Positions 25,161 to 36,001 of a stretch of DNA of 64,000 nt are shown one piece after another (positions within the stretch are counted from its first letter, which is position 1; every line of letters begins with the position of its first letter). The notes beneath the pieces were generated by a model that searched no databases, was not told where the DNA came from, and was given only the letters and a program-made list of their open reading frames with translations. Both the position numbers and the translations under genes were made by a program. Source of the stretch: Promethearchaeota archaeon (GTDB taxonomy: Archaea > Asgardarchaeota > Lokiarchaeia > Sigyniarchaeales > SOKP01); the NCBI GenBank assembly GCA_016840165.1, contig JAEOSU010000009.1, positions 1-64,000 of the forward strand, read 5' to 3'.

Positions 25161-26312
25161 TTATTTTAGGGTAAATTTCTCATACTTAGATTCGCACGGA
25201 TGGTTATCAGTAACCCAAAATTCCTTCTTTTGAGGTAAAACGATTATTGAACCTAAAGTTCCTGCAGCAGGACCATGCGTGCAAACTGTAAAATCATCTG
25301 GTTCCCTATTATCATGATCTCTTAAAATTTCTTTAATAATTTCAATGCTAATTTGTCCATGATACTTGTTCAGAAGTTCAATTTCTCTATTGTACCGCCT
25401 TATAGGGGATTCTATAGGACTTATATCCATATCATCCATTTTAAATCGAACATACTCTGGCAAATTAGCGTCTTTAAGCTCTTCTGACTGGTAATGGTTT
25501 GTGTGGGCTAGAATTCCGTTGTTAGGTCTACGAATCGCATAACGAGTGCTTGTAGTCTCAATAACACAAGTGTCGCCTGAATTGTCCATTAAACCACAAT
25601 GGAAGCCATTTGCTCGAGCAGGAAAATTAGATATAAAATCAATGGCTTCTTGAGTTGTTGCGCAAGTTTCTAATGCTTCCTGTATGATGAATGTAGCGGG
25701 AACACCTTTTAATCTGAAATCTAGTGGTTGCTTTTTCCACGACCGACCAAAATTATACCCTATAGCTAAACCTTTCTCATTTAACCCCATATGACAACCA
25801 ACTAGTGGATATTGTGTAAAATTCAAATTTTTATATCCATTATCTGGTCTTTCTTTACGGACTACCTGAAAAGGTTGGAGAACGTTAGGAAAATCATAAT
25901 TTCTTCCAAAAATCATCGAATTATCAATCGTTGCCTCCGAATAGGCAAAAATCATTGAACAAGCGGGAACTGGGGGGTTTTTATATATTGATTTGGGATC
26001 ACCAGACATAACCTCTATAAAATGACCACCATAAATCAATCCTTTGCTTATACCAGCTGCTTTGCTCAGAGCATTCATCTTCTCATGCTGGTTGGGAAGG
26101 AGATGTGATAATGATTTTTTAATATTTCTTTTTCCCATTACACCTAGAGCAAATTTAATAATGGAAAGTGGTATCCATTTAGAAGTCACTTCAGAAAACA
26201 TTTTTGAGTGTAAGACTGTATCAAATGTAGTATAAATTTTTTCTTTTAACTGTTCTCCTTGTTGAAAACCACGCTCAGCGGGATTTCCTTCTATCTTTAT
26301 ATAATCCACCAT
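25161..26312 (-). CDS. Peptidase C45 / acyl-CoA:6-APA acyltransferase family Ntn hydrolase
   Basis: ERG.QQG, nucleophile context PA-CS, GRNYD, G.NEKGLA, HTNHY, S..RY.R. Confidence 0.85.
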   Translation of the reverse strand: MVDYIKIEGNPAERGFQQGEQLKEKIYTTFDTVLHSKMFSEVTSKWIPLSIIKFALGVMGKRNIKKSLSHLLPNQHEKMNALSKAAGISKGLIYGGHFIEVMSGDPKSIYKNPPVPACSMIFAYSEATIDNSMIFGRNYDFPNVLQPFQVVRKERPDNGYKNLNFTQYPLVGCHMGLNEKGLAIGYNFGRSWKKQPLDFRLKGVPATFIIQEALETCATTQEAIDFISNFPARANGFHCGLMDNSGDTCVIETTSTRYAIRRPNNGILAHTNHYQSEELKDANLPEYVRFKMDDMDISPIESPIRRYNREIELLNKYHGQISIEIIKEILRDHDNREPDDFTVCTHGPAAGTLGSIIVLPQKKEFWVTDNHPCESKYEKFTLK

Positions 26313-26366: not shown

Positions 26367-27764
26367 CTATAATCTTTTTTCCTGCATACGATATAGTAGG
26401 AATGCAAATACTACGATTAAAACTGCAATTATTATTTGAATAGTCCCACTCAATGCTCCACCAACGACATCTTCTAAAGCTAAAGAGGCAACTAATACTC
26501 CAAGTTCGAATAATGCAAGATAATTAAGAATTGCGAGAAACTTATTCTCTATTGATGATGATTTGGTATTTAGTGTATTTCTTTCACGATTTAAAGATTT
26601 TCTTATACGAGTAATTACCTCATCAGTTTTTTCTGAGAAGGTAAATCCATCGAGTTTATCAATCATTTCATTGAACATACTTGTTTTAAAGGTACTTGTA
26701 AAAAGTAAGCGTGTTATTTTCGATAAAATAACATCTTTATTTAATTCCAGAATAATTCGATTTAATTCCGTCTCTAACTCTTCTAAACGCTCGATTTTAT
26801 CCTTTAACTTAAGATTTTCTGCTTGAGCTCGCGTATCAGAAATGATACTATCAAATCTTTCGGCTACGGTCAAAATATTTTCCATATGCATCAAAATCAA
26901 GAATCTCTGAACATTACCGACTTCTGGCGCAAAAATGGTATCAATCAACATATTTTTCATCGAATCAGGGTCTAGCAACCCAGGACCGGGAATTATAACA
27001 TTTCCAGCATGCGTTATCATTACAAATTCATTTTTGTAGGGAGAGAGATTTTGAAGATTAATTTGATCTCGATAAGCTATTGGGTCCAATTCACGATATT
27101 TATCTGTCCTTAATGTTAATCCAATAGAATAGTGCGCATCTTTTCCTAATTTTTTTCCGATAAAATTATAATCTTCTCTATTAAATGTAGGTTTTGCGTC
27201 CCAGATAACCCACGTGTGATGCCATGGTTCTAAGACGGATTCCAATTTTGCTTTTCTTGGGTAATTTGCTTTTTTTAACAATTCTATAGTATTATCTCTT
27301 ATTTCAATAAATTTTTCTGTAATTGGTCTGCCTGTACTTTCGAGAATTATATTTGCTGGTTGAGAAATCTCGATAAACTCTTCAATTTTATGGTAATTAT
27401 CAAAAATTAACTCACAATGAATCACTAATACTGAACCATAGTGAATGTGTCCTTCAAGCCGGATCTTTCCCACTACGGACGGGACTGTTGAACAGGAAAA
27501 CCTATCTGACTTTCCTATCTTAAAACATACCGGTGCATACAAATGGGATTGACTCGAGATCCATTTTAATGGTTGGTGACATTTAAATCCCGTAGCTTTA
27601 TTTTTAACAGTACAATGATATCTTTTATAAATCTTTAATGAGGTTTCCGTCTCTAAAAACTCTCTTACTTCGGGAAGCGTAAAATAAAGACCTAGTTCAT
27701 AAAATTTCCAAAACACTAAAGTGACTTTAAACTCTTTTTCAGGTTCTATTTCAGTAATCTCCAT
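26367..27764 (-). CDS. Hypothetical membrane protein: soluble domain, long helices and two C-terminal TM helices
   Basis: 465 aa; hydrophobic hairpin at the C-terminus; CorA-like topology but no GMN motif. Confidence 0.6.
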   Translation of the reverse strand: MEITEIEPEKEFKVTLVFWKFYELGLYFTLPEVREFLETETSLKIYKRYHCTVKNKATGFKCHQPLKWISSQSHLYAPVCFKIGKSDRFSCSTVPSVVGKIRLEGHIHYGSVLVIHCELIFDNYHKIEEFIEISQPANIILESTGRPITEKFIEIRDNTIELLKKANYPRKAKLESVLEPWHHTWVIWDAKPTFNREDYNFIGKKLGKDAHYSIGLTLRTDKYRELDPIAYRDQINLQNLSPYKNEFVMITHAGNVIIPGPGLLDPDSMKNMLIDTIFAPEVGNVQRFLILMHMENILTVAERFDSIISDTRAQAENLKLKDKIERLEELETELNRIILELNKDVILSKITRLLFTSTFKTSMFNEMIDKLDGFTFSEKTDEVITRIRKSLNRERNTLNTKSSSIENKFLAILNYLALFELGVLVASLALEDVVGGALSGTIQIIIAVLIVVFAFLLYRMQEKRL

Positions 27765-27953: not shown

Positions 27954-28601
27954 TTGAATACAAATAAAAAGAATATTCCAAAAGTAGATTATGAAATCAT
28001 TATTGCAGATATCTCGGATGCAGAAGGAATTCATACTGCTTTAAAGGCGAATTTAATCGAAATAGAAGATCTTGATTTGATTTCTGAAAATCAGAGGAAA
28101 AAGTTAGAGCAAAATGGCTTTTTAAGGAAAGAAGTTGATGTTGGATATTATCAAAATCTAATTCAAAACCAAAAAACCGAAATTTATGTTGCCAAAACTA
28201 AAGATGACCAAATTCTAGGGTTTGCAAGTATTCATAAAGAGCAGACTGATATCAAAAAATTGCGAAGTACTTTAAAGAATCTTTATCTTGATAACCAGAA
28301 AATAGAAGATCTTCTTTTAAAGGAGGAGTACAAATTTATTTATCTAGATCAAATTAGTATAATAAATAAATACAAACGGAGAGGGATCGCAACTAAACTC
28401 ATGAAAGCTATCTTAGAGAATAGTCAAAACCCGATTGTTGCGTTTATCGTGAAATATCCACTTCATAATAAAGCCTCTGCATTATGGCATGAGTTTAATG
28501 ATTTTGAATTAGTCGGGTCTGCCGATGGTTATTATAAAGATAAGCAATTTCAGTGGTATATCTACATTCATTGGAATAATAGTAAATTAATTAAAAAATG
28601 A
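27954..28601 (+). CDS. GNAT family N-acetyltransferase
   Basis: YLDQISI..KYKRRGIATKL acetyl-CoA motif; N.AS..WHE..DF. Confidence 0.85.
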   Translation: MNTNKKNIPKVDYEIIIADISDAEGIHTALKANLIEIEDLDLISENQRKKLEQNGFLRKEVDVGYYQNLIQNQKTEIYVAKTKDDQILGFASIHKEQTDIKKLRSTLKNLYLDNQKIEDLLLKEEYKFIYLDQISIINKYKRRGIATKLMKAILENSQNPIVAFIVKYPLHNKASALWHEFNDFELVGSADGYYKDKQFQWYIYIHWNNSKLIKK

Positions 28602-28652: not shown

Positions 28653-28835
28653 TTACTCTTCTTCTTTTGAAGCTAAATCTTTTGCAAGCTCAACGCCTAA
28701 ATCAAGAAAGTCTTTCATAGAGTTATAAAATATATCTCCGATAAGTTCTCCATCTTCGTCAACCGACTCGAACTCATTTATTAACTCTTCTTTCCGTCGT
28801 TCTAACTCGAAATTTAGTTCTATTTCACTTCCCAT
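28653..28835 (-). CDS. Small acidic protein (60 aa), last gene of the lipid operon
   Basis: Strong SD (GGGAGG) upstream of ATG; 17 bp from the upstream gene; shares a DIFY helix with 28853-29548. Confidence 0.7.
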   Translation of the reverse strand: MGSEIELNFELERRKEELINEFESVDEDGELIGDIFYNSMKDFLDLGVELAKDLASKEEE

Positions 28836-28852
28836 TTATATCGTCCTCCCTT

Positions 28853-29548
28853 TTATTCTTCCATAGGTTGGATTTTGAGAGATTCAATAATATTGACAAT
28901 ATCTTCAGCAAGTTCATATCTTTGATCTCGATATTTCTCTCGATTTAATCGTCTCTCTATTGGTAAAGGTGTTCCCACTTTAACTCTGATCCCTTGTGCA
29001 TCAAACATATTTAATATCTTGGTCTTTTCGGTGTATATTGCAAGTGGAATAATTGGTGCTTCTCCCGCAACGGCAAACTTAATAATGCCTGCCATTGCTT
29101 TTATTTGGACATCTCTTTCCAATTTAGATTCTGGAGTCATTGCAACAAGATCCCCCACTTCATTTAAGTAATGGAATACCTTATCGATTGGTTCCGTATC
29201 TTCCTTATCTAATGTGCTTCGAAACATACCTAAAGATTTAAGAATCGGACCGTACATTTGATTTTTCATGAGTTTATGGTGAACCATGAAATGAATCCTT
29301 CTACCAGAAACTTGACTGATGATAAGCATATCTCTTAATGCATTATCGCTTATAGTTGTTAAAATCGCTTTGCCCATTAATGGAACATTTTCTTTACCTT
29401 CAATTTTTAGGTCTGCTAAAGCAGAGAGCCCAAATGCACCAATACCCTTCACTGCCCCATAAAAAATATCTTCCATTAAATCCTTACTTATAAGCTTGTC
29501 TTTCCCCTTAGTTTCTTCTTCTACTGGCGTTTCTACATTTTCTTCCAT
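28853..29548 (-). CDS. PlsC-like lysophospholipid acyltransferase-fold protein lacking the catalytic His
   Basis: IEGKENVP..G.AIL, RRIHFM, G..VAMTPE, APIIPLAI, VKVG.PL; the HxxxxD motif is replaced by TISDNALRD. Confidence 0.75.
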   Translation of the reverse strand: MEENVETPVEEETKGKDKLISKDLMEDIFYGAVKGIGAFGLSALADLKIEGKENVPLMGKAILTTISDNALRDMLIISQVSGRRIHFMVHHKLMKNQMYGPILKSLGMFRSTLDKEDTEPIDKVFHYLNEVGDLVAMTPESKLERDVQIKAMAGIIKFAVAGEAPIIPLAIYTEKTKILNMFDAQGIRVKVGTPLPIERRLNREKYRDQRYELAEDIVNIIESLKIQPMEE

Positions 29549-29562
29549 TTTTTTTACCTCAA

Positions 29563-29757
29563 TTATAATTTGTCTATAAATAAATTTACTTCCTCCATTC
29601 GCCTCTCATAATATTCCTTCAAATCTTTTTCAGAAACGAATGTTGGTATTACTTTTTCGGTGTATAAATCAAAAATCGTTGATAATTTCATTTTATGCTT
29701 GATATTATCAAAAAAATCTTCACCCATTTCTCTTAATTGTTTGATGAATTCTGCCAT
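29563..29757 (-). CDS. Small helical protein (64 aa) in the lipid operon
   Basis: SD GAGGTG upstream; tightly packed between co-oriented genes. Confidence 0.7.
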   Translation of the reverse strand: MAEFIKQLREMGEDFFDNIKHKMKLSTIFDLYTEKVIPTFVSEKDLKEYYERRMEEVNLFIDKL

Positions 29758-29783
29758 TTCATATACACCTCTTAATTATTTAA

Positions 29784-30809
29784 TTATGTTAATTGATCCC
29801 ACTTTCCACATCTTGAACCCCAGCGAGCAATAATCTTATTGTCTTGTTCGGGCATTCTTACTTGTACAATCTCACAATTATTAGGACAGTCACCACAATG
29901 GAAAGTAGATGTTTTGAATTCGATATCCGAGACTTCCAATCCACGGAATACGGTTTCACTTCCGTGCTCTGTATAGTAATCTCTGACTAAAATTGCCATT
30001 CCTAGAGCACCCATCAAAACGTTATATTTTGGTACGATTACCTTGCATCCTAAGTGGCGCTCAAATGCTTGAATTATCCCTTTATTATATGAAACGCCAC
30101 CTTGAAATACCACAGGTTCATCTAATTCCTTTCCCTTTCCTACATTATTCATATAGTTTCTTACTAAAGAATCGCACAATCCTGCAATGATATCTTCTTT
30201 TGAATAACCTGCGTTTTGTTTATGAATCATATCCGATTCTGCAAAGACTGTGCATCTCCCCGCAATACTCACGGGGTTTTTAGACTGTATAGCATAATCT
30301 CCAAAATCCTCGATAGGAATACCTAATCGTGCTGCTTGATGATCAAGAAAAGAACCCGTGCCTGCAGCACAAACCGAATTCATAGCAAAATCAACTATTA
30401 TGCCATCCCGGAGGATAATAATTTTTGAATCTTGTCCTCCAATTTCTAATATAGTCCTTACATCAGGATACATTGACTGGGTAGCAACCGCATGAGCAAT
30501 TATTTCAGTTTTAGCTAAATCTCCACCTACCACTGCTTTCGTTAAATAACGGGCTGAGCCCGTGGTTCCACAACATTTTATCGCATAATCATGGAGATTT
30601 GGATCCTCTTCTATTTTATCACGTAATTCTGACATTCCTGCTTTCGCAGAATCAATAGGAGAACCGCGATTACGCAAAAATACACTAGTAAGAACTTCTC
30701 CATTAATATCCATTAAAACGAATTTACAAGATACGGATCCGATATCAATTCCTAAAAAAGCCTCTTTCTTTCCCTCTTCACTTTTTACTTTATTAGATAC
30801 TTCAACCAT
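29784..30809 (-). CDS. ATP-dependent CoA-substrate-specific enzyme activase (HgdC/BadF-BadG-BcrA-BcrD, ASKHA fold) with C-terminal Cys cluster
   Basis: GIDIGSVSCK, TTGSAR, EIIAH, EIGGQDSK, MNSVCAAGTGSFLD, AGRCTVFAESD, QGGV, CGDCPNNC...GSRC. Confidence 0.92.
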   Translation of the reverse strand: MVEVSNKVKSEEGKKEAFLGIDIGSVSCKFVLMDINGEVLTSVFLRNRGSPIDSAKAGMSELRDKIEEDPNLHDYAIKCCGTTGSARYLTKAVVGGDLAKTEIIAHAVATQSMYPDVRTILEIGGQDSKIIILRDGIIVDFAMNSVCAAGTGSFLDHQAARLGIPIEDFGDYAIQSKNPVSIAGRCTVFAESDMIHKQNAGYSKEDIIAGLCDSLVRNYMNNVGKGKELDEPVVFQGGVSYNKGIIQAFERHLGCKVIVPKYNVLMGALGMAILVRDYYTEHGSETVFRGLEVSDIEFKTSTFHCGDCPNNCEIVQVRMPEQDNKIIARWGSRCGKWDQLT

Positions 30810-30816
30810 TTCTTTT

Positions 30817-32004
30817 TCACTCCGCTTGAATTAACTGAGCTATTTCGTTATAAAATTCCCCACCATATTGTGGATATATTTTCTTTTGGCCGTTTGCCAT
30901 AAATTCTGGTGTACTTTTAATCTCTCTATCACGTCTCGCTTCCAATAAATCATAAAATGCCTCTAATCTAGTTCGAAATCCTTCTTGACCGCTCTGCTCA
31001 TCAAAAGAAAAATAAATTACTGGAAGGTCGTAAATTTTCTTGAGTTTATTGGTAATTATTGTTCGGGCTGTAACCTCAGGCATACAAGTGAAAGGGTACG
31101 AATGAATGAATCCATCGAATCCCGCATTTGCCTTATCAATATATTCGCCTAATACCCATACACATTCTCCGCCAATATCCATAGGCATATATGGTTTAGC
31201 CAAATGTTCAAGCCATTTGCGGTGATAATTCAAATGAAATTTATGGACAACCCAGTCATATAAACTCAAACTCTGGTGGACCTCGACTCCCATCTCACCT
31301 AATTTTCTTCGAATGTCAAGATTCACATAAGGTTCCAAGCTTATATGTATCTCACCAGAAAGACCAACTCTTAATGGGGTTCTCGATCTATCAATATCGA
31401 TTGAATTGAAATCATCTTTAATAATTTTTTTAAAACTACGCAATTCCACTAAAGTGTTAGCCTTATCAAGTTTTTGTAATAATTCATTCACAACTCGTGT
31501 TGTGTCGCCTAAATTACGCTCATACGCACGAAATAAGCCTTCGGCGGTCTGAATATCATTTAATAACTTTGCTTTTTTCAAAAAGTAAATAACTGCTTTT
31601 ATATATTTCGAATAGATAAATAAATCTTTTCGACCACTTACTTCTTGTAAGGTCTTAATCCAGTGAAATTCCAATAGATCTGCTTGATCTAATGGAATTA
31701 CGCGAATATTTTTATATCCCATATCTCGTAAAATGCGTTCTTGGACACTTGCATAAAAACCGAAACGACATGGTCCGCAATCAATTGCCATTACAAGAGT
31801 ATCAGCACCCTTTTTAATTGCACTAACAAAATCACCAAGAGTAGCTTTAAACGGAAAACATACGAATTCAGGACTGTATTTTACTCCGATTTTAATCGCT
31901 TCACGATTTGTGGGATCGGGAAGGACAACATCTAAATCTAATGCTGTGAATAATGTCTTGAAGGCGACCCAGTTAGGTCCCATGTTTGGAAAGGAAATTA
32001 GCAT
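30817..32004 (-). CDS. 2-hydroxyacyl-CoA dehydratase/reductase-like subunit (PlsR-like)
   Basis: CFPFK..LG, GPCRFGFY, GEI, PFTCMPE, DEQSG.EG..TRLEAF. Confidence 0.8.
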   Translation of the reverse strand: MLISFPNMGPNWVAFKTLFTALDLDVVLPDPTNREAIKIGVKYSPEFVCFPFKATLGDFVSAIKKGADTLVMAIDCGPCRFGFYASVQERILRDMGYKNIRVIPLDQADLLEFHWIKTLQEVSGRKDLFIYSKYIKAVIYFLKKAKLLNDIQTAEGLFRAYERNLGDTTRVVNELLQKLDKANTLVELRSFKKIIKDDFNSIDIDRSRTPLRVGLSGEIHISLEPYVNLDIRRKLGEMGVEVHQSLSLYDWVVHKFHLNYHRKWLEHLAKPYMPMDIGGECVWVLGEYIDKANAGFDGFIHSYPFTCMPEVTARTIITNKLKKIYDLPVIYFSFDEQSGQEGFRTRLEAFYDLLEARRDREIKSTPEFMANGQKKIYPQYGGEFYNEIAQLIQAE

Positions 32005-32184
32005 TATTTATTCGTTTTTTGCGGGTGTCTTGCTTTTTACTTAACTATGTATTTTAATAAAAACAGTCTTATATAAAAAATTACCCATTAACTTCAGAAT
32101 CTCAAAAGTATGATAGCTTCTATTAAAATGTTATAATTTTTTTATTAAATTTAAGAATAAATCCAAGTCTTTTGAGGATAGTAA

Positions 32185-33258
32185 TTAAGTCGCTTCATAG
32201 AAATTAATTTTTGATTTCCATCTCGGTTCCAACCCAAGTTTTTTTCTCTTTCTACGAACCATTTCAACAAAACTTTCAATTCGGGTCATCATTCCTGCCT
32301 CTCCAGAATGTTCGTCCATAATTATTTCTAGAAATGGTAATCCAACCACTTTCATATCGCGCATTATTAGTTCGGAGATAAGACTGTCAGGACCGCATGC
32401 AAAACTTATTAGAAAGATTACCCCATCAATCTCGTTTCGACCTTTAGTGAGAAAAAAGCGTATCGCCTGCATAATCTCTTCCTCATGTCGCCAATAATTT
32501 CTTAGAATTCCTCCTCTAGGATTGACAATAACAGGTTTTTTAAACAAATATTCTGGGAGATTTTCGATAGTAAGTACTTCCACACCTTGGTTATGCAACT
32601 TTTTAATAAAATCCAAATTGATGAAGGTATCAAATATATTATAGGCATGTCCAAGTAATAAAAAGCGGATATCCCCTTGTACTTTCTTTTTTGGTAATTT
32701 AAAGGGTAAACTACGTTGAACGAGACGTAAGGCATGATTCACAGAGCCCCCCTCTCGTAAAAACCTGTGATAATCATCAAAATAGGTTTGCGCTTTATTA
32801 TATGCGTCGAGAGATGCATTTTGTCCCTTTCCCAATTGTTTTCCAAGTTCTATTGCAGATGTAGAAATGGGAAAATCTTTTACATTTACTTCAAAATTCA
32901 AAATTTTTGGTATAGGCAAGATTTTGATTACATCGGGTAATGATAAAAACTTAGGACAAAAGTAGGATTCTGGAACTTCAGAAACATATCGTGGGACAAA
33001 AATAAAATCTAAATCAGGATTTGCTTCAACTAATTTGAGAACTTGACCATAATAAATTTTTACGGGAATACACAATTCTCCAAATCCATGTGTAACTCCT
33101 TCCTCAACAATTTTTTTGTTTGTAGGAGGACTGAGTACGATCTCTGCATCTAATTCTTCCAATAATTTTTTCCAAAAAGGATAGTAACGATAATAATGAA
33201 GAGCTCTTGGAATTCCGACTTTATATCGCTTTTTAACACCAATATTACTTAAAGCCAT
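32185..33258 (-). CDS. DUF2229-like CoA-activase-associated reductase/dehydratase subunit
   Basis: KVGIPRAL.YY.YYPFW, CIPVK.YYG, CPK, LLGHAYN..D, FACGPD, DEHSGEAG..TRIESF. Confidence 0.82.
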   Translation of the reverse strand: MALSNIGVKKRYKVGIPRALHYYRYYPFWKKLLEELDAEIVLSPPTNKKIVEEGVTHGFGELCIPVKIYYGQVLKLVEANPDLDFIFVPRYVSEVPESYFCPKFLSLPDVIKILPIPKILNFEVNVKDFPISTSAIELGKQLGKGQNASLDAYNKAQTYFDDYHRFLREGGSVNHALRLVQRSLPFKLPKKKVQGDIRFLLLGHAYNIFDTFINLDFIKKLHNQGVEVLTIENLPEYLFKKPVIVNPRGGILRNYWRHEEEIMQAIRFFLTKGRNEIDGVIFLISFACGPDSLISELIMRDMKVVGLPFLEIIMDEHSGEAGMMTRIESFVEMVRRKRKKLGLEPRWKSKINFYEAT

Positions 33259-33278
33259 CGCAAGAGTCCTTTTGCTAA

Positions 33279-34949
33279 TTATGCGTCCGGAGTATCATAG
33301 AGCATTAAGTCTTTAATTTGAGCCATCATATTATCCGTTAACCGTTTCAGTTCTTCGTAATCAGGCATAGGTTTACCCCAATATTTTTTATGTTCTAAGA
33401 AAACTGGTCCGGCTTTGAATATATTACCTTTGTAGAAATTTATGTTCTTTGCATGTTTCGGATAAGTATTTTCAGTACCAGTGACACCAACTAACACGAT
33501 CGGTACTTGAGCTTCAATTGCCAACCGTATTGCCCCCGTATGAGCATCCAATAACTCGCCATTACCAGGATTTGTTGTTCCCTCTGGATAGATGGTTACT
33601 ATTTGCCCTTTACTAAGTAAATATCTAGCATAATTAAATGAATCCACATCGTGGGCTCCTCTTCTTAATGGAAAGGCAAAATGGGTTCTTACCCATGCAT
33701 TTACTACAGGGATTTGAAATAAGGACTGCTTAGACATTTGCCAAATTGGTCTTTTCTTATGAATTCCAAAAGCAGTTGCGAGCATAATTACATCCCATTC
33801 AGAATTGTGATTCGTACAGAGTATAAATGCCCCTTCATCAGGGATGTTTTTCTCCCAATCTATGACACGGTAGGGAGCCATAATATCACACCACCTATTC
33901 ACTACCTGAGCCGAAAACATATATATAGTCTCTTTAAATTTCCAATCAATCTTCAATTCCTCTAAACTTCTAATTAATGCATACCATGAATCATCAATCA
34001 ATTGTAGTGTTCCTTTCAATAAATCCTTTCCATATGTTTTCAGATTAAATTTTGACTTCTGTTCAACATCTTCTGGTGATCCAATCGAAAGCTCCTCCTG
34101 TGGTTTTCCATAAATCCCTTGCCTTAATTCATATATTACTGTTCTTAATTCATTGGTCAATCTCCTTATGTCATCATATGACATCTTATCAACATCGTAT
34201 TTGTCATAGTATATAGGTTCTCCTACTCGCGCGATTACTTGAGTTGGTTTCATCACTAATTTTCCTTTTGGTAATGCATTCTGCGAACCAATTATTGCCA
34301 TTGGGACAATAGGGCAATCCATCTCTAAAGCTAAACGCACTGCTCCTGTCTTGAATTCACCGATATTCTCATCGTGGGCGCGAGTTCCTTCTGGAAAAAT
34401 ACCGACTACTTCACCTTCACTTAATAAATCCTTTGCATATTGCCAACCAAGTGTTGGATTCTCTCGATCTAATTTAAATGCACTTAAATTAGTAAATAAA
34501 GTTCTAACTATAGGGGTCTTGAAATTATCTAATTTACTCATCCAATGAATATGGCGATGCATGGCTGCTCCACAGAAAAACGGGTCCAAATGACTGTTAT
34601 GAGTACTTACGAGAATAACGGGGCCCCATTCTGGAAAGAGGTTCTTCTTTGGATATTCGGCTTTGAAGTTCCAAAACATCCTAGCTGCAAGTTTAACATA
34701 TATATATGCCGCCCACCATTGAAATCTCTTTTCTAAGTGAGTGAGATTCAACCGCTCGATAATATCCCGGTAGATATTATTGATTGAGTCGATTGGATTG
34801 TATTTTAAAAGCTTATAGAGAACATTTTCATGCGTTTTATCCAGCTTCAAATCTCCTTTAAGTTTTTCCTCTATTATTCTTTCTGGCTCGTAGTCATAGT
34901 CCTTTGAGACGACTTGCTTTGGTTTTTGCGTTTGTTTTTCGAGTTCCAT
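33279..34949 (-). CDS. Tandem two-domain PlsC-like (LPLAT) acyltransferase
   Basis: Domain 1: HNSHLD, WMSK, FPEGTR, FKTGAVRLA, PIVP. Domain 2: NHNSEWD, QMSK, YPEGTT, HTGAIRLA, PIVLV. Confidence 0.9.
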   Translation of the reverse strand: MELEKQTQKPKQVVSKDYDYEPERIIEEKLKGDLKLDKTHENVLYKLLKYNPIDSINNIYRDIIERLNLTHLEKRFQWWAAYIYVKLAARMFWNFKAEYPKKNLFPEWGPVILVSTHNSHLDPFFCGAAMHRHIHWMSKLDNFKTPIVRTLFTNLSAFKLDRENPTLGWQYAKDLLSEGEVVGIFPEGTRAHDENIGEFKTGAVRLALEMDCPIVPMAIIGSQNALPKGKLVMKPTQVIARVGEPIYYDKYDVDKMSYDDIRRLTNELRTVIYELRQGIYGKPQEELSIGSPEDVEQKSKFNLKTYGKDLLKGTLQLIDDSWYALIRSLEELKIDWKFKETIYMFSAQVVNRWCDIMAPYRVIDWEKNIPDEGAFILCTNHNSEWDVIMLATAFGIHKKRPIWQMSKQSLFQIPVVNAWVRTHFAFPLRRGAHDVDSFNYARYLLSKGQIVTIYPEGTTNPGNGELLDAHTGAIRLAIEAQVPIVLVGVTGTENTYPKHAKNINFYKGNIFKAGPVFLEHKKYWGKPMPDYEELKRLTDNMMAQIKDLMLYDTPDA

Positions 34950-35245: not shown

Positions 35246-36001
35246 TTATTTAGAATTAGATGGCTTTTTTTGTTCTACCAATCCTAAAAGTTCATCCAAT
35301 GATTCAACCAAAACTTCTGGGCTGGATTCAGCTAATGTTTGTTTACTACTTACACCACTTGCTATGCCAACCGTCCATACTCCTGCTTCTTTGCCCGATA
35401 TGATATCAGAAGGCATGTCTCCGATCATGATGAATTCTTTTAATTTAGTTGATTTATAACTTTCAAGAACCGGAGTTAAAGCATTAGGATCGGGTTTTAG
35501 TGCAGGTAATAGATCTGCCCCATATACTCCTTTAAATAAATGTTCGATATTTTCCTTCTCGAGATGTTCCAATACATTTCTGGTTTGATTATGTGAAACG
35601 ATAAATAAATCGAAAGATTTCTTAAGTTTTTTCAATATTTCTATGCAATTTGGATAAAATGGAGCCTCTTTCGCATAAGTCAAATATTTGGTGAAAATTC
35701 TAACAGCTATTTCTAATTTCTTAAAAAATGTAAGTGATTTTAAGGATGTTATGTACTCAAACATATCATACGATTCAAGCAGGATTTTAGGAAGAGGATA
35801 TCCTTGAATAGTTTCCATTAAAGCTCCTATTTCTTCTATTGTATTGCTGATATCAGCATTAATATTTTTTTTTTGATATACTTCCTCTATTGATTTTTGC
35901 AGCGGTTCTCTAATATCTAGAAGTGTACCATCAAAATCAAAAATAATACCTTTAATCGCTCCTGTTTGGAGCCGTTTTAATAGTTGGTTGTCAGCGGACA
36001 T
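35246..36001 (-). CDS. HAD-superfamily phosphatase
   Basis: FDFDGTL, IVS, KPDP, IGDMPSDI..G..AG. Confidence 0.88.
   Translation of the reverse strand: MSADNQLLKRLQTGAIKGIIFDFDGTLLDIREPLQKSIEEVYQKKNINADISNTIEEIGALMETIQGYPLPKILLESYDMFEYITSLKSLTFFKKLEIAVRIFTKYLTYAKEAPFYPNCIEILKKLKKSFDLFIVSHNQTRNVLEHLEKENIEHLFKGVYGADLLPALKPDPNALTPVLESYKSTKLKEFIMIGDMPSDIISGKEAGVWTVGIASGVSSKQTLAESSPEVLVESLDELLGLVEQKKPSNSK

Follow-up and report, generated by a model that had tools for sequence, protein, structure and literature searches.

The stretch of DNA analysed here (the window: positions 1 to 64,000 of contig JAEOSU010000009.1, assembly GCA_016840165.1, from a Promethearchaeota archaeon of the class Lokiarchaeia) carries at 28653-34949 an operon in which acyltransferase genes of the PlsC type are combined with the genes of a split radical reductase of the DUF2229 type, a family whose sole characterised enzymes reduce lipid esters (PMC9702350, PMC13159169). 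The list of open reading frames (ORFs) and family scans place seven minus-strand ORFs head to tail, encoding a tandem acyltransferase (AT2x), two DUF2229-type catalytic subunits (D1 and D2), an ATPase activase (ACT), a protein of 64 amino acids (aa; s64), a pseudo-acyltransferase (AT3) and a 60-aa protein (s60), with intergenic gaps of 20, 180, 7, 26, 14 and 17 bp; an earlier reading of this DNA made from its letters alone (the sequence-only reading) had described seven co-oriented genes with such spacing, and the coordinates agree. By analogy with the bacterial enzymes PlsA/PlsR and Ger, D1, D2, s64 and ACT may reduce the acyl ester made by the adjacent acyltransferases to an alkenyl or alkyl ether, a proposal on which our confidence is evenly divided. 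The broader proposal, that the Promethearchaeales (of the Lokiarchaeia class and including the cultured MK-D1) make fatty-acid glycerolipids whose ester a four-subunit split DUF2229 reductase converts to an alkenyl or alkyl ether, is offered tentatively, as a possibility about which we are rather doubtful. The operon holds the sole PF01553 domains and the sole DUF2229 locus of a 3.6 Mb genome that is 99.7% complete in 105 contigs, and that these share one operon favours an ether-forming function.

In Clostridium perfringens PlsA consists of Act1-Act2-Red1 modules and PlsR of Red2 (PMC12838417, PMC8788747), and the architecture of Ger is given as BBDHDDH (PMC13159169). Against this background D1 (32185-33258, 357 aa) is Red1-like, and D2 (30817-32004, 395 aa) is a divergent module in the Red2/PlsR-like position. 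D1 matches DUF2229 over 1-217/218 at 152 bits and ends in a short HGD-D tail, and D2 matches the N-terminal part of DUF2229 at 44 bits, with an HGD-D tail of 23.3 bits. Comparison of 104 D1/Red1 modules, split and fused alike, shows no variation at three cysteines of D1 (C63, C101 and C288), and D2-type modules keep a triad of their own (C49, C76/C79 and C307, all four residues being invariant). The AlphaFold2 model of D1 (pLDDT 88.9) finds HadB/C, DCCP, BzdNO and MbdON as its top 20 folds in the PDB (Foldseek), with a TM score of about 0.5 and 12-16% identity to these solved relatives. The sequence-only reading had labelled the first protein DUF2229-like, which stands, and the second a subunit resembling 2-hydroxyacyl-CoA dehydratases, which does not: judged by its domain matches, D2 is a second DUF2229-type module and not a bona fide dehydratase subunit. 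Full-length matches to PF06050 (HGD-D) were not obtained, as only positions 282-341/342 aligned, with scores (27.1 and 23.3 bits) that fall short of the 28.4-bit cut-off; in the PDB, HadB is matched in sequence over residues 274-334 alone, a PDB sequence search with D2 returned nothing useful, and no NCBIfam model, dehydratase/reductase models included, matches D1 or D2. Among D1-D2 fusion proteins, it is the second module that D2 groups with; such fusions exist in other organisms as chains of 690-770 aa and argue for a D1/D2 pair, putatively a heterodimer.

ACT (29784-30809, 341 aa) is an HgdC/HadI-type ATPase activase (TIGR00241, 192 bits; BcrAD_BadFG, 160 bits) that aligns with HadI, MbdQ and HgdC at 119-132 bits, the upper value being that for HadI (4eht), with whose cluster cysteines C147 (in CAAGTG) and C186 (in CTVFAES) are aligned. 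About 60 extra residues carry the tail C305-x2-C308-x3-C312...C334, so that the ASKHA activase with a CxxCxxxC..C tail seen by the sequence-only reading is borne out. This four-cysteine tail is conserved in every split-trio activase examined, non-Asgard ones included, is absent from HadI and HgdC, and corresponds in alignment to the Act2-Red1 linker of the long fused proteins. The cluster cysteines of the activase, together with the modelled HadB/C-type fold and its cysteine ligands, place the enzyme by motif and model in the BCR/HAD superfamily. Two sets of features speak for the reduction of an ester to an ether: the HadB/C, BzdNO and DCCP fold of D1 with the HadI cluster cysteines of ACT, and the DUF2229 modules, cysteine triads, collinear order (D1 as Red1, D2 as Red2) and activase tail that are held in common with the long fused proteins.

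The same superfamily membership invites a different substrate. An acyl-CoA thioester could be what D1, D2, s64 and ACT act upon, in the manner of dehydratases or reductases such as HadBC or BzdNO, so as to supply a modified donor to the acyltransferases, given that the solved fold relatives all bind CoA thioesters or small molecules and that the activase is closest to HadI, MbdQ and HgdC; the 15 acyl-CoA-ligase-type genes of the genome would fit such a role, as would the loss of the reductase in genomes where the acyltransferases stay, a pattern expected of mere donor diversification. This scenario appears unlikely, since PF06050 is matched by only the C-terminal 60 residues and below its cut-off, since no NCBIfam dehydratase or reductase model recognises D1 or D2, since the DUF2229 modules and activase tail are held in common with PlsA/Ger-type proteins and not with HadBC/HadI, and since a PlsA/PlsR-type pair lies in the same operon of relatives. 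The short PF06050 match and the low identity to HadB/C also show that this is not a true 2-hydroxyacyl-CoA dehydratase, in line with the earlier view that a plain amino-acid-fermentation dehydratase is disfavoured.

A fourth component of the reductase is predicted in s64 (29563-29757), for which no family match was found. A small ORF follows the activase gene in the window's family, in the sister family, in MK-D1 and in a non-Asgard (Omnitrophota-type) trio; these ORFs share the motif S-x-[FIV]-[FLV]-D...P, in which D30 and P38 are invariant, and s64 has been lost together with D1, D2 and ACT in two genomes (G083 and G174). A model of D1, D2 and s64 in complex, in which s64 alone was scored, reached 0.84, 0.84 and 0.83 in three runs against 0.00 for the best control, the mark for this score being one that 58 of 80 solved complexes but only 2 of 110 mismatched pairs attain; the contacts agree to at least 83% and the partner pLDDT is at least 69. 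In the model residues 24-64 of s64 rest on a D2-specific insert (residues 109-146, 185-192, 253-267 and 381-384). The modelling predicts that s64 binds D2 as a fourth reductase subunit, and this too favours the ester-to-ether proposal.

The persistence of the gene order was followed across 200 sampled genomes of the window's phylum, with families coded (f1 being the window's own and f2 its sister), and the arrangements were read from searches of the fetched loci with eight proteins. Orthologues of D1 (at least 67% identity) are present in 38 of the 40 genomes of the window's family, and each of the three sister-family genomes has a D1 match, two of them at about 50% identity. With D1 identity ranging from 67 to 96% across the window's family, the operon arrangement is under strong purifying selection. 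Within that family, genera g1, g4 and g8 have the order HAD-AT2x-D1-[spacer]-D2-ACT-s64-AT3, where HAD is an upstream phosphatase gene (the loci of g5 and g6 are partial). In the sister family the acyltransferases are encoded by two separate genes, of which the second lacks the catalytic His, and D1-D2-ACT and a small ORF come after them; the cultured Promethearchaeum syntrophicum MK-D1 has an acyltransferase gene (308 aa), D1, D2, ACT and a small ORF at about 336.5-341.0 kb of NZ_CP042905.2; and a further lineage (P0124) has the order acyltransferase-D1-ACT-D2. The last order is seen at L147:7075-11373, in the metagenome-assembled genome (MAG) GCA_964457955.1. Gene order recurs in at least 10 genomes of at least 5 genera, which puts the linkage beyond chance, and the retention of the acyltransferase-reductase order in the family, the sister family, MK-D1 and one further lineage, a comparison that the sequence-only reading had called for, counts in favour of an ether-forming role. 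Within the genus, identity is 89% for D1, 91% for D2, 93% for ACT, 94% for s64, 87% for AT3 and 81% for the phosphatase, and only 65% for AT2x. In the phylum sample PF01553 is present in 39 of 40 genomes of the window's family and in all three of the sister family, and also in families f14, f22 and f25; it was not found in the genomes searched of f5, f7, f12 and f27.

Relatives of the window also carry natural variants of the locus. In several of them a gene of 977-987 aa with the order Act1-Act2-Red1 is followed by a 469-aa Red2-type gene, which matches the C-terminal (Red2) part of the long forms at E 1e-34, and together these constitute a PlsA/PlsR-type pair (L015:10019-14404, L016:6975-11335, L051:9961-14329, L052:6492-10858 and L053:5792-10162). 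The pair stands directly after D1 in L015 and L016, and in L051 within the operon region, after an unrelated surface-protein gene; it is thus inside the operon in at least three relatives, and its Red1 module falls in the clade of fused proteins described below. In L053 fragments of D1 and D2 genes lie near the pair. The genome of the window has no such pair. The presence of an enzyme of this type within the operon of relatives is a further point in favour of ether formation. A second cassette comprises a FAD_binding_4-D1' fusion (806-837 aa), an activase' and a D2' (L016:1781-6641, L018:4207-9001, L034:6095-10871 and L145:11269-15409), located between D1 and D2 in L016 and L018, just upstream of D2 in L145 and elsewhere in L034. 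An AGPS-like role for its FAD domain was considered and rejected, as the domain matches cytokinin dehydrogenase/DprE1-type VAO flavoenzymes at 74 bits and AGPS only at E 5e-4.

The reductase can also be missing. Two 100%-complete genomes of the window's genus have the order HAD-AT2x-[toxin-deaminase-like ORF]-AT3-s60 and a D1-type gene nowhere, an ORF of about 203 aa of the PF14424 toxin-deaminase family having replaced D1-D2-ACT-s64 (L143:6896-11421 and L144:6207-10659). Such losses imply that the reductase with s64 is a dispensable block set on a constant acyltransferase core, and the absence of the reductase where HAD-AT2x-AT3-s60 is kept fits an optional modification of an acyl lipid. The AT-rich spacer of 180 bp between D1 and D2 (32005-32184) holds unrelated genes in other genomes, among them beta-helix surface proteins and the toxin-deaminase-like ORF, so insertion at this place counts for little by itself. 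Indeed, the trio could be a general low-potential reductase of the DCCP kind that has come to rest in an insertion-prone operon, beside lipid-remodelling acyltransferases with which it has no functional tie. Such a history would suit the mixed cargo of the spacer, the rank of DCCP among the best fold matches and the fact that most split trios elsewhere have no acyltransferase neighbour, but it seems quite improbable in view of the gaps of 7-26 bp, the order kept in two families, MK-D1 and a further lineage, the three different DUF2229-type systems that gather at the locus in relatives, and the three cysteines per module where a double cubane would have six.

The acyltransferase side of the operon begins with AT2x (33279-34949, 556 aa), in which PF01553 is matched twice (179 bits) and for both domains the best family match is TIGR00530, a model of 1-acyl-glycerol-3-phosphate acyltransferase domains (160 bits against a cut-off of 103). 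The motifs HxxxxD (as H-x-S-x-x-D) and (F/Y)PEGT are invariant in both domains across nine orthologues, in agreement with the sequence-only reading, which had found both sites intact, and on these motifs both domains are apparently catalytic. Homologues of similar length are nearly all labelled as Asgard, including LCGC14_1041950 from the Loki's Castle metagenome, and there are weak matches to lyso-ornithine-lipid acyltransferase models. AT3 (28853-29548, 231 aa; PF01553 weakly, 32.7 bits) has the LPLAT fold, and the degeneracy noted in the sequence-only reading extends to its relatives: in six aligned orthologues (57-87% identical) the catalytic His is replaced by Asp or Lys and FPEGTR by TPE[SEA]K (TPQAK in one). 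With these replacements AT3, for all its fold, is unlikely to be active as an acyltransferase. A role as a dedicated adaptor of the reductase was entertained for AT3 and downgraded, because AT3 is retained in genomes that have lost the reductase block. The small acidic ORF s60 (28653-28835; family match none) behaves in the same manner, staying with AT3 after the loss of that block; orthologues (38-78% identity) were found in the window's own genus only, and it resembles the N-terminal helix of AT3 through a shared DIFY...K...G...DL (local score 50, with 1 of 500 shuffles as high). Upstream of the operon, beyond the region covered by the sequence-only reading, a HAD-IA type phosphatase gene lies on the minus strand at 35246-36001 (HAD_2, 97 bits), with phosphoglycolate-phosphatase-like models below their cut-offs; it adjoins AT2x in almost every locus of the window's family long enough to include it (44-81% identity), and in two loci (L017 and L029) other genes separate it from AT2x. 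A transmembrane helix was predicted in none of the operon proteins.

What AT2x acylates is a question on which the remainder of the genome bears. It also encodes a PlsY homologue (126 bits), GGGPS (172 bits) and 15 AMP-binding ligases of the acyl-CoA-ligase type; an acyl carrier protein was not found in the genome, nor was a clear GpsA (best match 44.8 bits). The PlsY homologue (G000:C86:6470-6997) is part of a 404-aa open frame, roughly double the length normal for PlsY, and may be a fusion. The ester offered to the reductase might be something other than a bacterial-type diacylglycerolipid; examples would be a hybrid lipid formed by acylating an archaeal monoether, an aminolipid or some other small molecule that bears an acyl group. 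A number of observations lean that way: GGGPS is present and the PlsC family takes many acceptors, the lyso-ornithine-lipid models match weakly, GpsA is unclear and genes for forming glycerol 3-phosphate have been noted as lacking in Asgard archaea (PMC13400652), and within the genus AT2x has diverged more quickly than the reductase (65% identity against 89-93%). We give this a small likelihood, because both AT2x domains match the 1-acyl-glycerol-3-phosphate acyltransferase model best and above its cut-off, and because the operon gives no pointer to an amino-acid or sugar acceptor.

The D1 copy of the cultured MK-D1 is 43-46% identical and groups with the sister family. Three systems of the DUF2229 type are present in this organism: one trio linked to an acyltransferase and accompanied by a small ORF, another trio without such linkage, and a long fused form (loci L141:5270-9998, at about 336.3-341.0 kb of NZ_CP042905.2, L142:5511-8739 and L054:6001-10164). 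MK-D1 also has two PF01553 genes, though its description states that genes for ester lipids are lacking. All sampled words of the acyltransferase-linked cluster are present in an RNA-Seq run of 2020, a further point in favour of the proposal. A gene for a PadR-type regulator lies upstream of this cluster.

Several observations weigh against the proposal, the phylogeny among them. An exhaustive search with D1 returned 2,724 cluster representatives. Once the Asgard clade is set aside, D1 comes nearest to D1-D2 fusions and to stand-alone proteins some 330 aa long (35-40% identity, about 200 bits), and forms of about 1,400 aa do not appear among the 150 best matches. One stand-alone D1-like protein, about 39% identical to D1, is carried by cultured Thermoanaerobacter species (P0131 cluster). 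In a maximum-likelihood tree of 111 Red1/D1 modules rooted on D2-type modules, all activase-fused forms make up one clade (SH-aLRT 100, stem 1.56) and the D1 of the window lies outside it; the fused clade was identified by architecture and by the published MK-D1 match, the characterised PlsA, PlsR and Ger sequences not being in the tree. Alongside sequences of Thermotogota, Bacillota and others, this clade takes in the long protein of MK-D1, most likely the one reported in the literature as a Ger homologue. Together with the copies of the sister family and MK-D1, a FAD-fused paralogue and a small number of representatives, the D1 of the window makes up a separate clade (SH-aLRT 98) nested among the split trios. 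In keeping with this, a profile of split D1-like modules scores 340-360 bits for split forms and 136-182 for fused Red1 modules. Searched with the D2 profile, 78 of 80 long forms show a collinear match in their Red2 region, at low scores (8-36 bits). On tree and profiles, the enzyme shares the design of PlsA/PlsR/Ger but is not their orthologue. The sequence-only reading's description of a split PlsA/PlsR-like reductase therefore holds as to modules, cysteine triads and activase tail, and fails as to descent; of the placement it had asked about, D1 does not branch with the PlsA/Ger-type fused clade, and its nearest relatives are uncharacterised split trios.

Genomic context elsewhere adds to these points. 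The nearest non-Asgard split trios, which are uncharacterised, have non-lipid neighbours (ferredoxin and flavin reductase, DNA-repair genes, or an epimerase). A PF01553-like gene lies within 6 kb in only 1 of 80 long-fused loci, so adjacency to an acyltransferase is no hallmark of the fused clade. A PF01553-like ORF was seen beside a long fused gene, on the opposite strand, in one Asgard locus (L049:2291-7188) and one of Leptospira (L127:5141-10329). A search among the longer proteins turned up only FAD-D1, D1-D2 and activase-D1 fusions, and no fusion of an acyltransferase to D1. Families f5 and f27 have long fused forms and unlinked trios with no PF01553 in the 24 genomes searched, which implies that the DUF2229 enzymes of Asgard archaea are not always dependent on PlsC-type products. 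All structurally solved relatives, as noted above, act on CoA thioesters or small molecules. Finally, the lipids of MK-D1 have been reported as isoprenoid ethers only, from hydrocarbons freed by ether cleavage (PMC7015854); a caveat to that analysis is that the ether-cleavage method could miss ester lipids (PMC13400652).

From the gene content, motifs, fold, conservation, linkage and predicted s64-D2 contact, we infer the following substrate, product and order of steps. AT2x would most likely move a fatty acyl group from acyl-CoA to a glycerol phosphate or lyso-lipid backbone, and the upstream HAD enzyme may take off a phosphate. D1 and D2 would form the catalytic pair, of the DUF2229 branch of the BCR/HAD superfamily, with three cysteines each for an iron-sulphur cluster, and s64 is predicted to clamp the helical insert specific to D2. 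ACT would be an HgdC-like dimer with a bridging [4Fe-4S] cluster and the extra four-cysteine site, in which ATP hydrolysis injects a low-potential electron; by analogy with PlsA/PlsR and Ger, this electron might reduce the carbonyl of the acyl-lipid ester by way of a ketyl radical, yielding a 1-alkenyl or 1-alkyl ether. AT3, without its catalytic His, could serve as a lipid-binding partner on the acyltransferase side. AT2x may acylate both glycerol positions, and the operon might then amount to the self-contained route suggested in the sequence-only reading.

The contig is archaeal (Asgard). More than 100 proteins from metagenomes and MAGs are 77-96% identical to D1, their source labels being Promethearchaeota or other Asgard groups, and clusters of orthologous genes are present in MK-D1 as well as in the family and order to which the window belongs, which settles a doubt that the sequence-only reading had left standing. 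As to expression, the spacer at 32005-32184 contains an element, TTTATATA, that resembles an archaeal TATA box, so that D2-ACT-s64-AT3-s60 may have a promoter of their own; a scan for sigma-70 promoters gave no excess, on a model that does not apply to archaea. Downstream of the operon lie an Ntn-hydrolase gene of the AAT/choloylglycine-hydrolase family (25161-26312, minus strand, 108 bits), a gene for a DUF2207-like membrane protein (26367-27764, minus strand) and a GNAT acetyltransferase gene (27954-28601, plus strand), none of which was found in three relatives checked. The AAT/choloylglycine-hydrolase family includes lipid-amide hydrolases.

The problem addressed is the origin of eukaryotes, whose lipids are built on fatty acyl chains, from an archaeal host whose lipids are isoprenoid ethers. 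PlsC and PlsY homologues are known in Lokiarchaeum (PMC6431249, PMC13400652), and Ger homologues are known in Asgard archaea, MK-D1 included (PMC13159169), so that part of the surprise claimed for the locus had already been on record. Those were separate observations. The locus shows that, within one order of Asgard archaea, no PlsC-type acyltransferases are present other than those sharing an operon with a dedicated radical reductase, which belongs to the ether-forming superfamily. A literature search found no paper on the operon, the split four-part enzyme or the pseudo-acyltransferase, and a full-text search on DUF2229 gave nothing relevant beyond the Ger papers. New here are the clade test, the predicted subunit s64, the natural deletion variants, the PlsA/PlsR-type pair within the operon and the MK-D1 cluster with its RNA-Seq run. 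Speculation is thereby narrowed to a defined set of five to eight genes, a version of which is carried by a cultured organism, and a split, four-component form of the PlsA/Ger superfamily, widespread in bacteria, is defined. Were the proposal true, close archaeal relatives of eukaryotes would be able to make non-isoprenoid ether lipids, and possibly mixed membranes, by a route that needs no oxygen.

Among known systems, PlsA/PlsR (C. perfringens CPE1194/1195, Q8XL48/Q8XL47; a single-chain PlsA in Enterococcus and Lactococcus) has the same DUF2229-type Red1-Red2 order, three conserved cysteines per module, an HgdC-type activase followed by CxxCxxxC...C, membership in the BCR/HAD superfamily and occurrence in anaerobes. 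It is itself a two-gene split, and this split form recurs inside the operon in relatives of the window. In contrast, the system of the window consists of four separate proteins: the extra s64 is one of them, and a single activase, which presumably forms a homodimer, stands where PlsA has Act1-Act2. Its genes are co-operonic with acyltransferases in an archaeal host, and its D1 lies in another clade. Ger (Thermotoga maritima Tmari_0479; Desulfatibacillum alkenivorans SHJ90043) has the same superfamily branch and module composition, and the long fused proteins of Asgard archaea cluster with those of Thermotogota and other bacterial long forms, whereas the genome of the window has no long fused form and its D1 scores about 110-180 bits lower against fused than against split-trio forms.

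The dehydratases and reductases HadBC/HadI, HgdAB/HgdC, BzdNO and MbdONPQ resemble the system in the fold of D1 (TM score about 0.5), the activase (120-132 bits), the cluster cysteines and ATP-driven electron injection; they differ in that identity is 12-16%, PF06050 is matched over the last 60 residues only and the activase of the window has the additional four-cysteine tail. DCCP/DCCP-R of Carboxydothermus hydrogenoformans (6eno, 7yyl) has the same fold and a partnership with an activase, but it is a homodimer with six cysteines for an [8Fe-9S] cluster, whereas D1 and D2 are unlike each other and have three cysteines each. On the acyltransferase side, PlsC of E. coli and T. maritima has the same HxxxxD and EGT(R) motifs, and both AT2x domains pass the cut-off of TIGR00530; unlike PlsC, AT2x carries two apparently catalytic domains in one chain without a transmembrane helix, a form almost confined to this Asgard group, with a His-less paralogue alongside.

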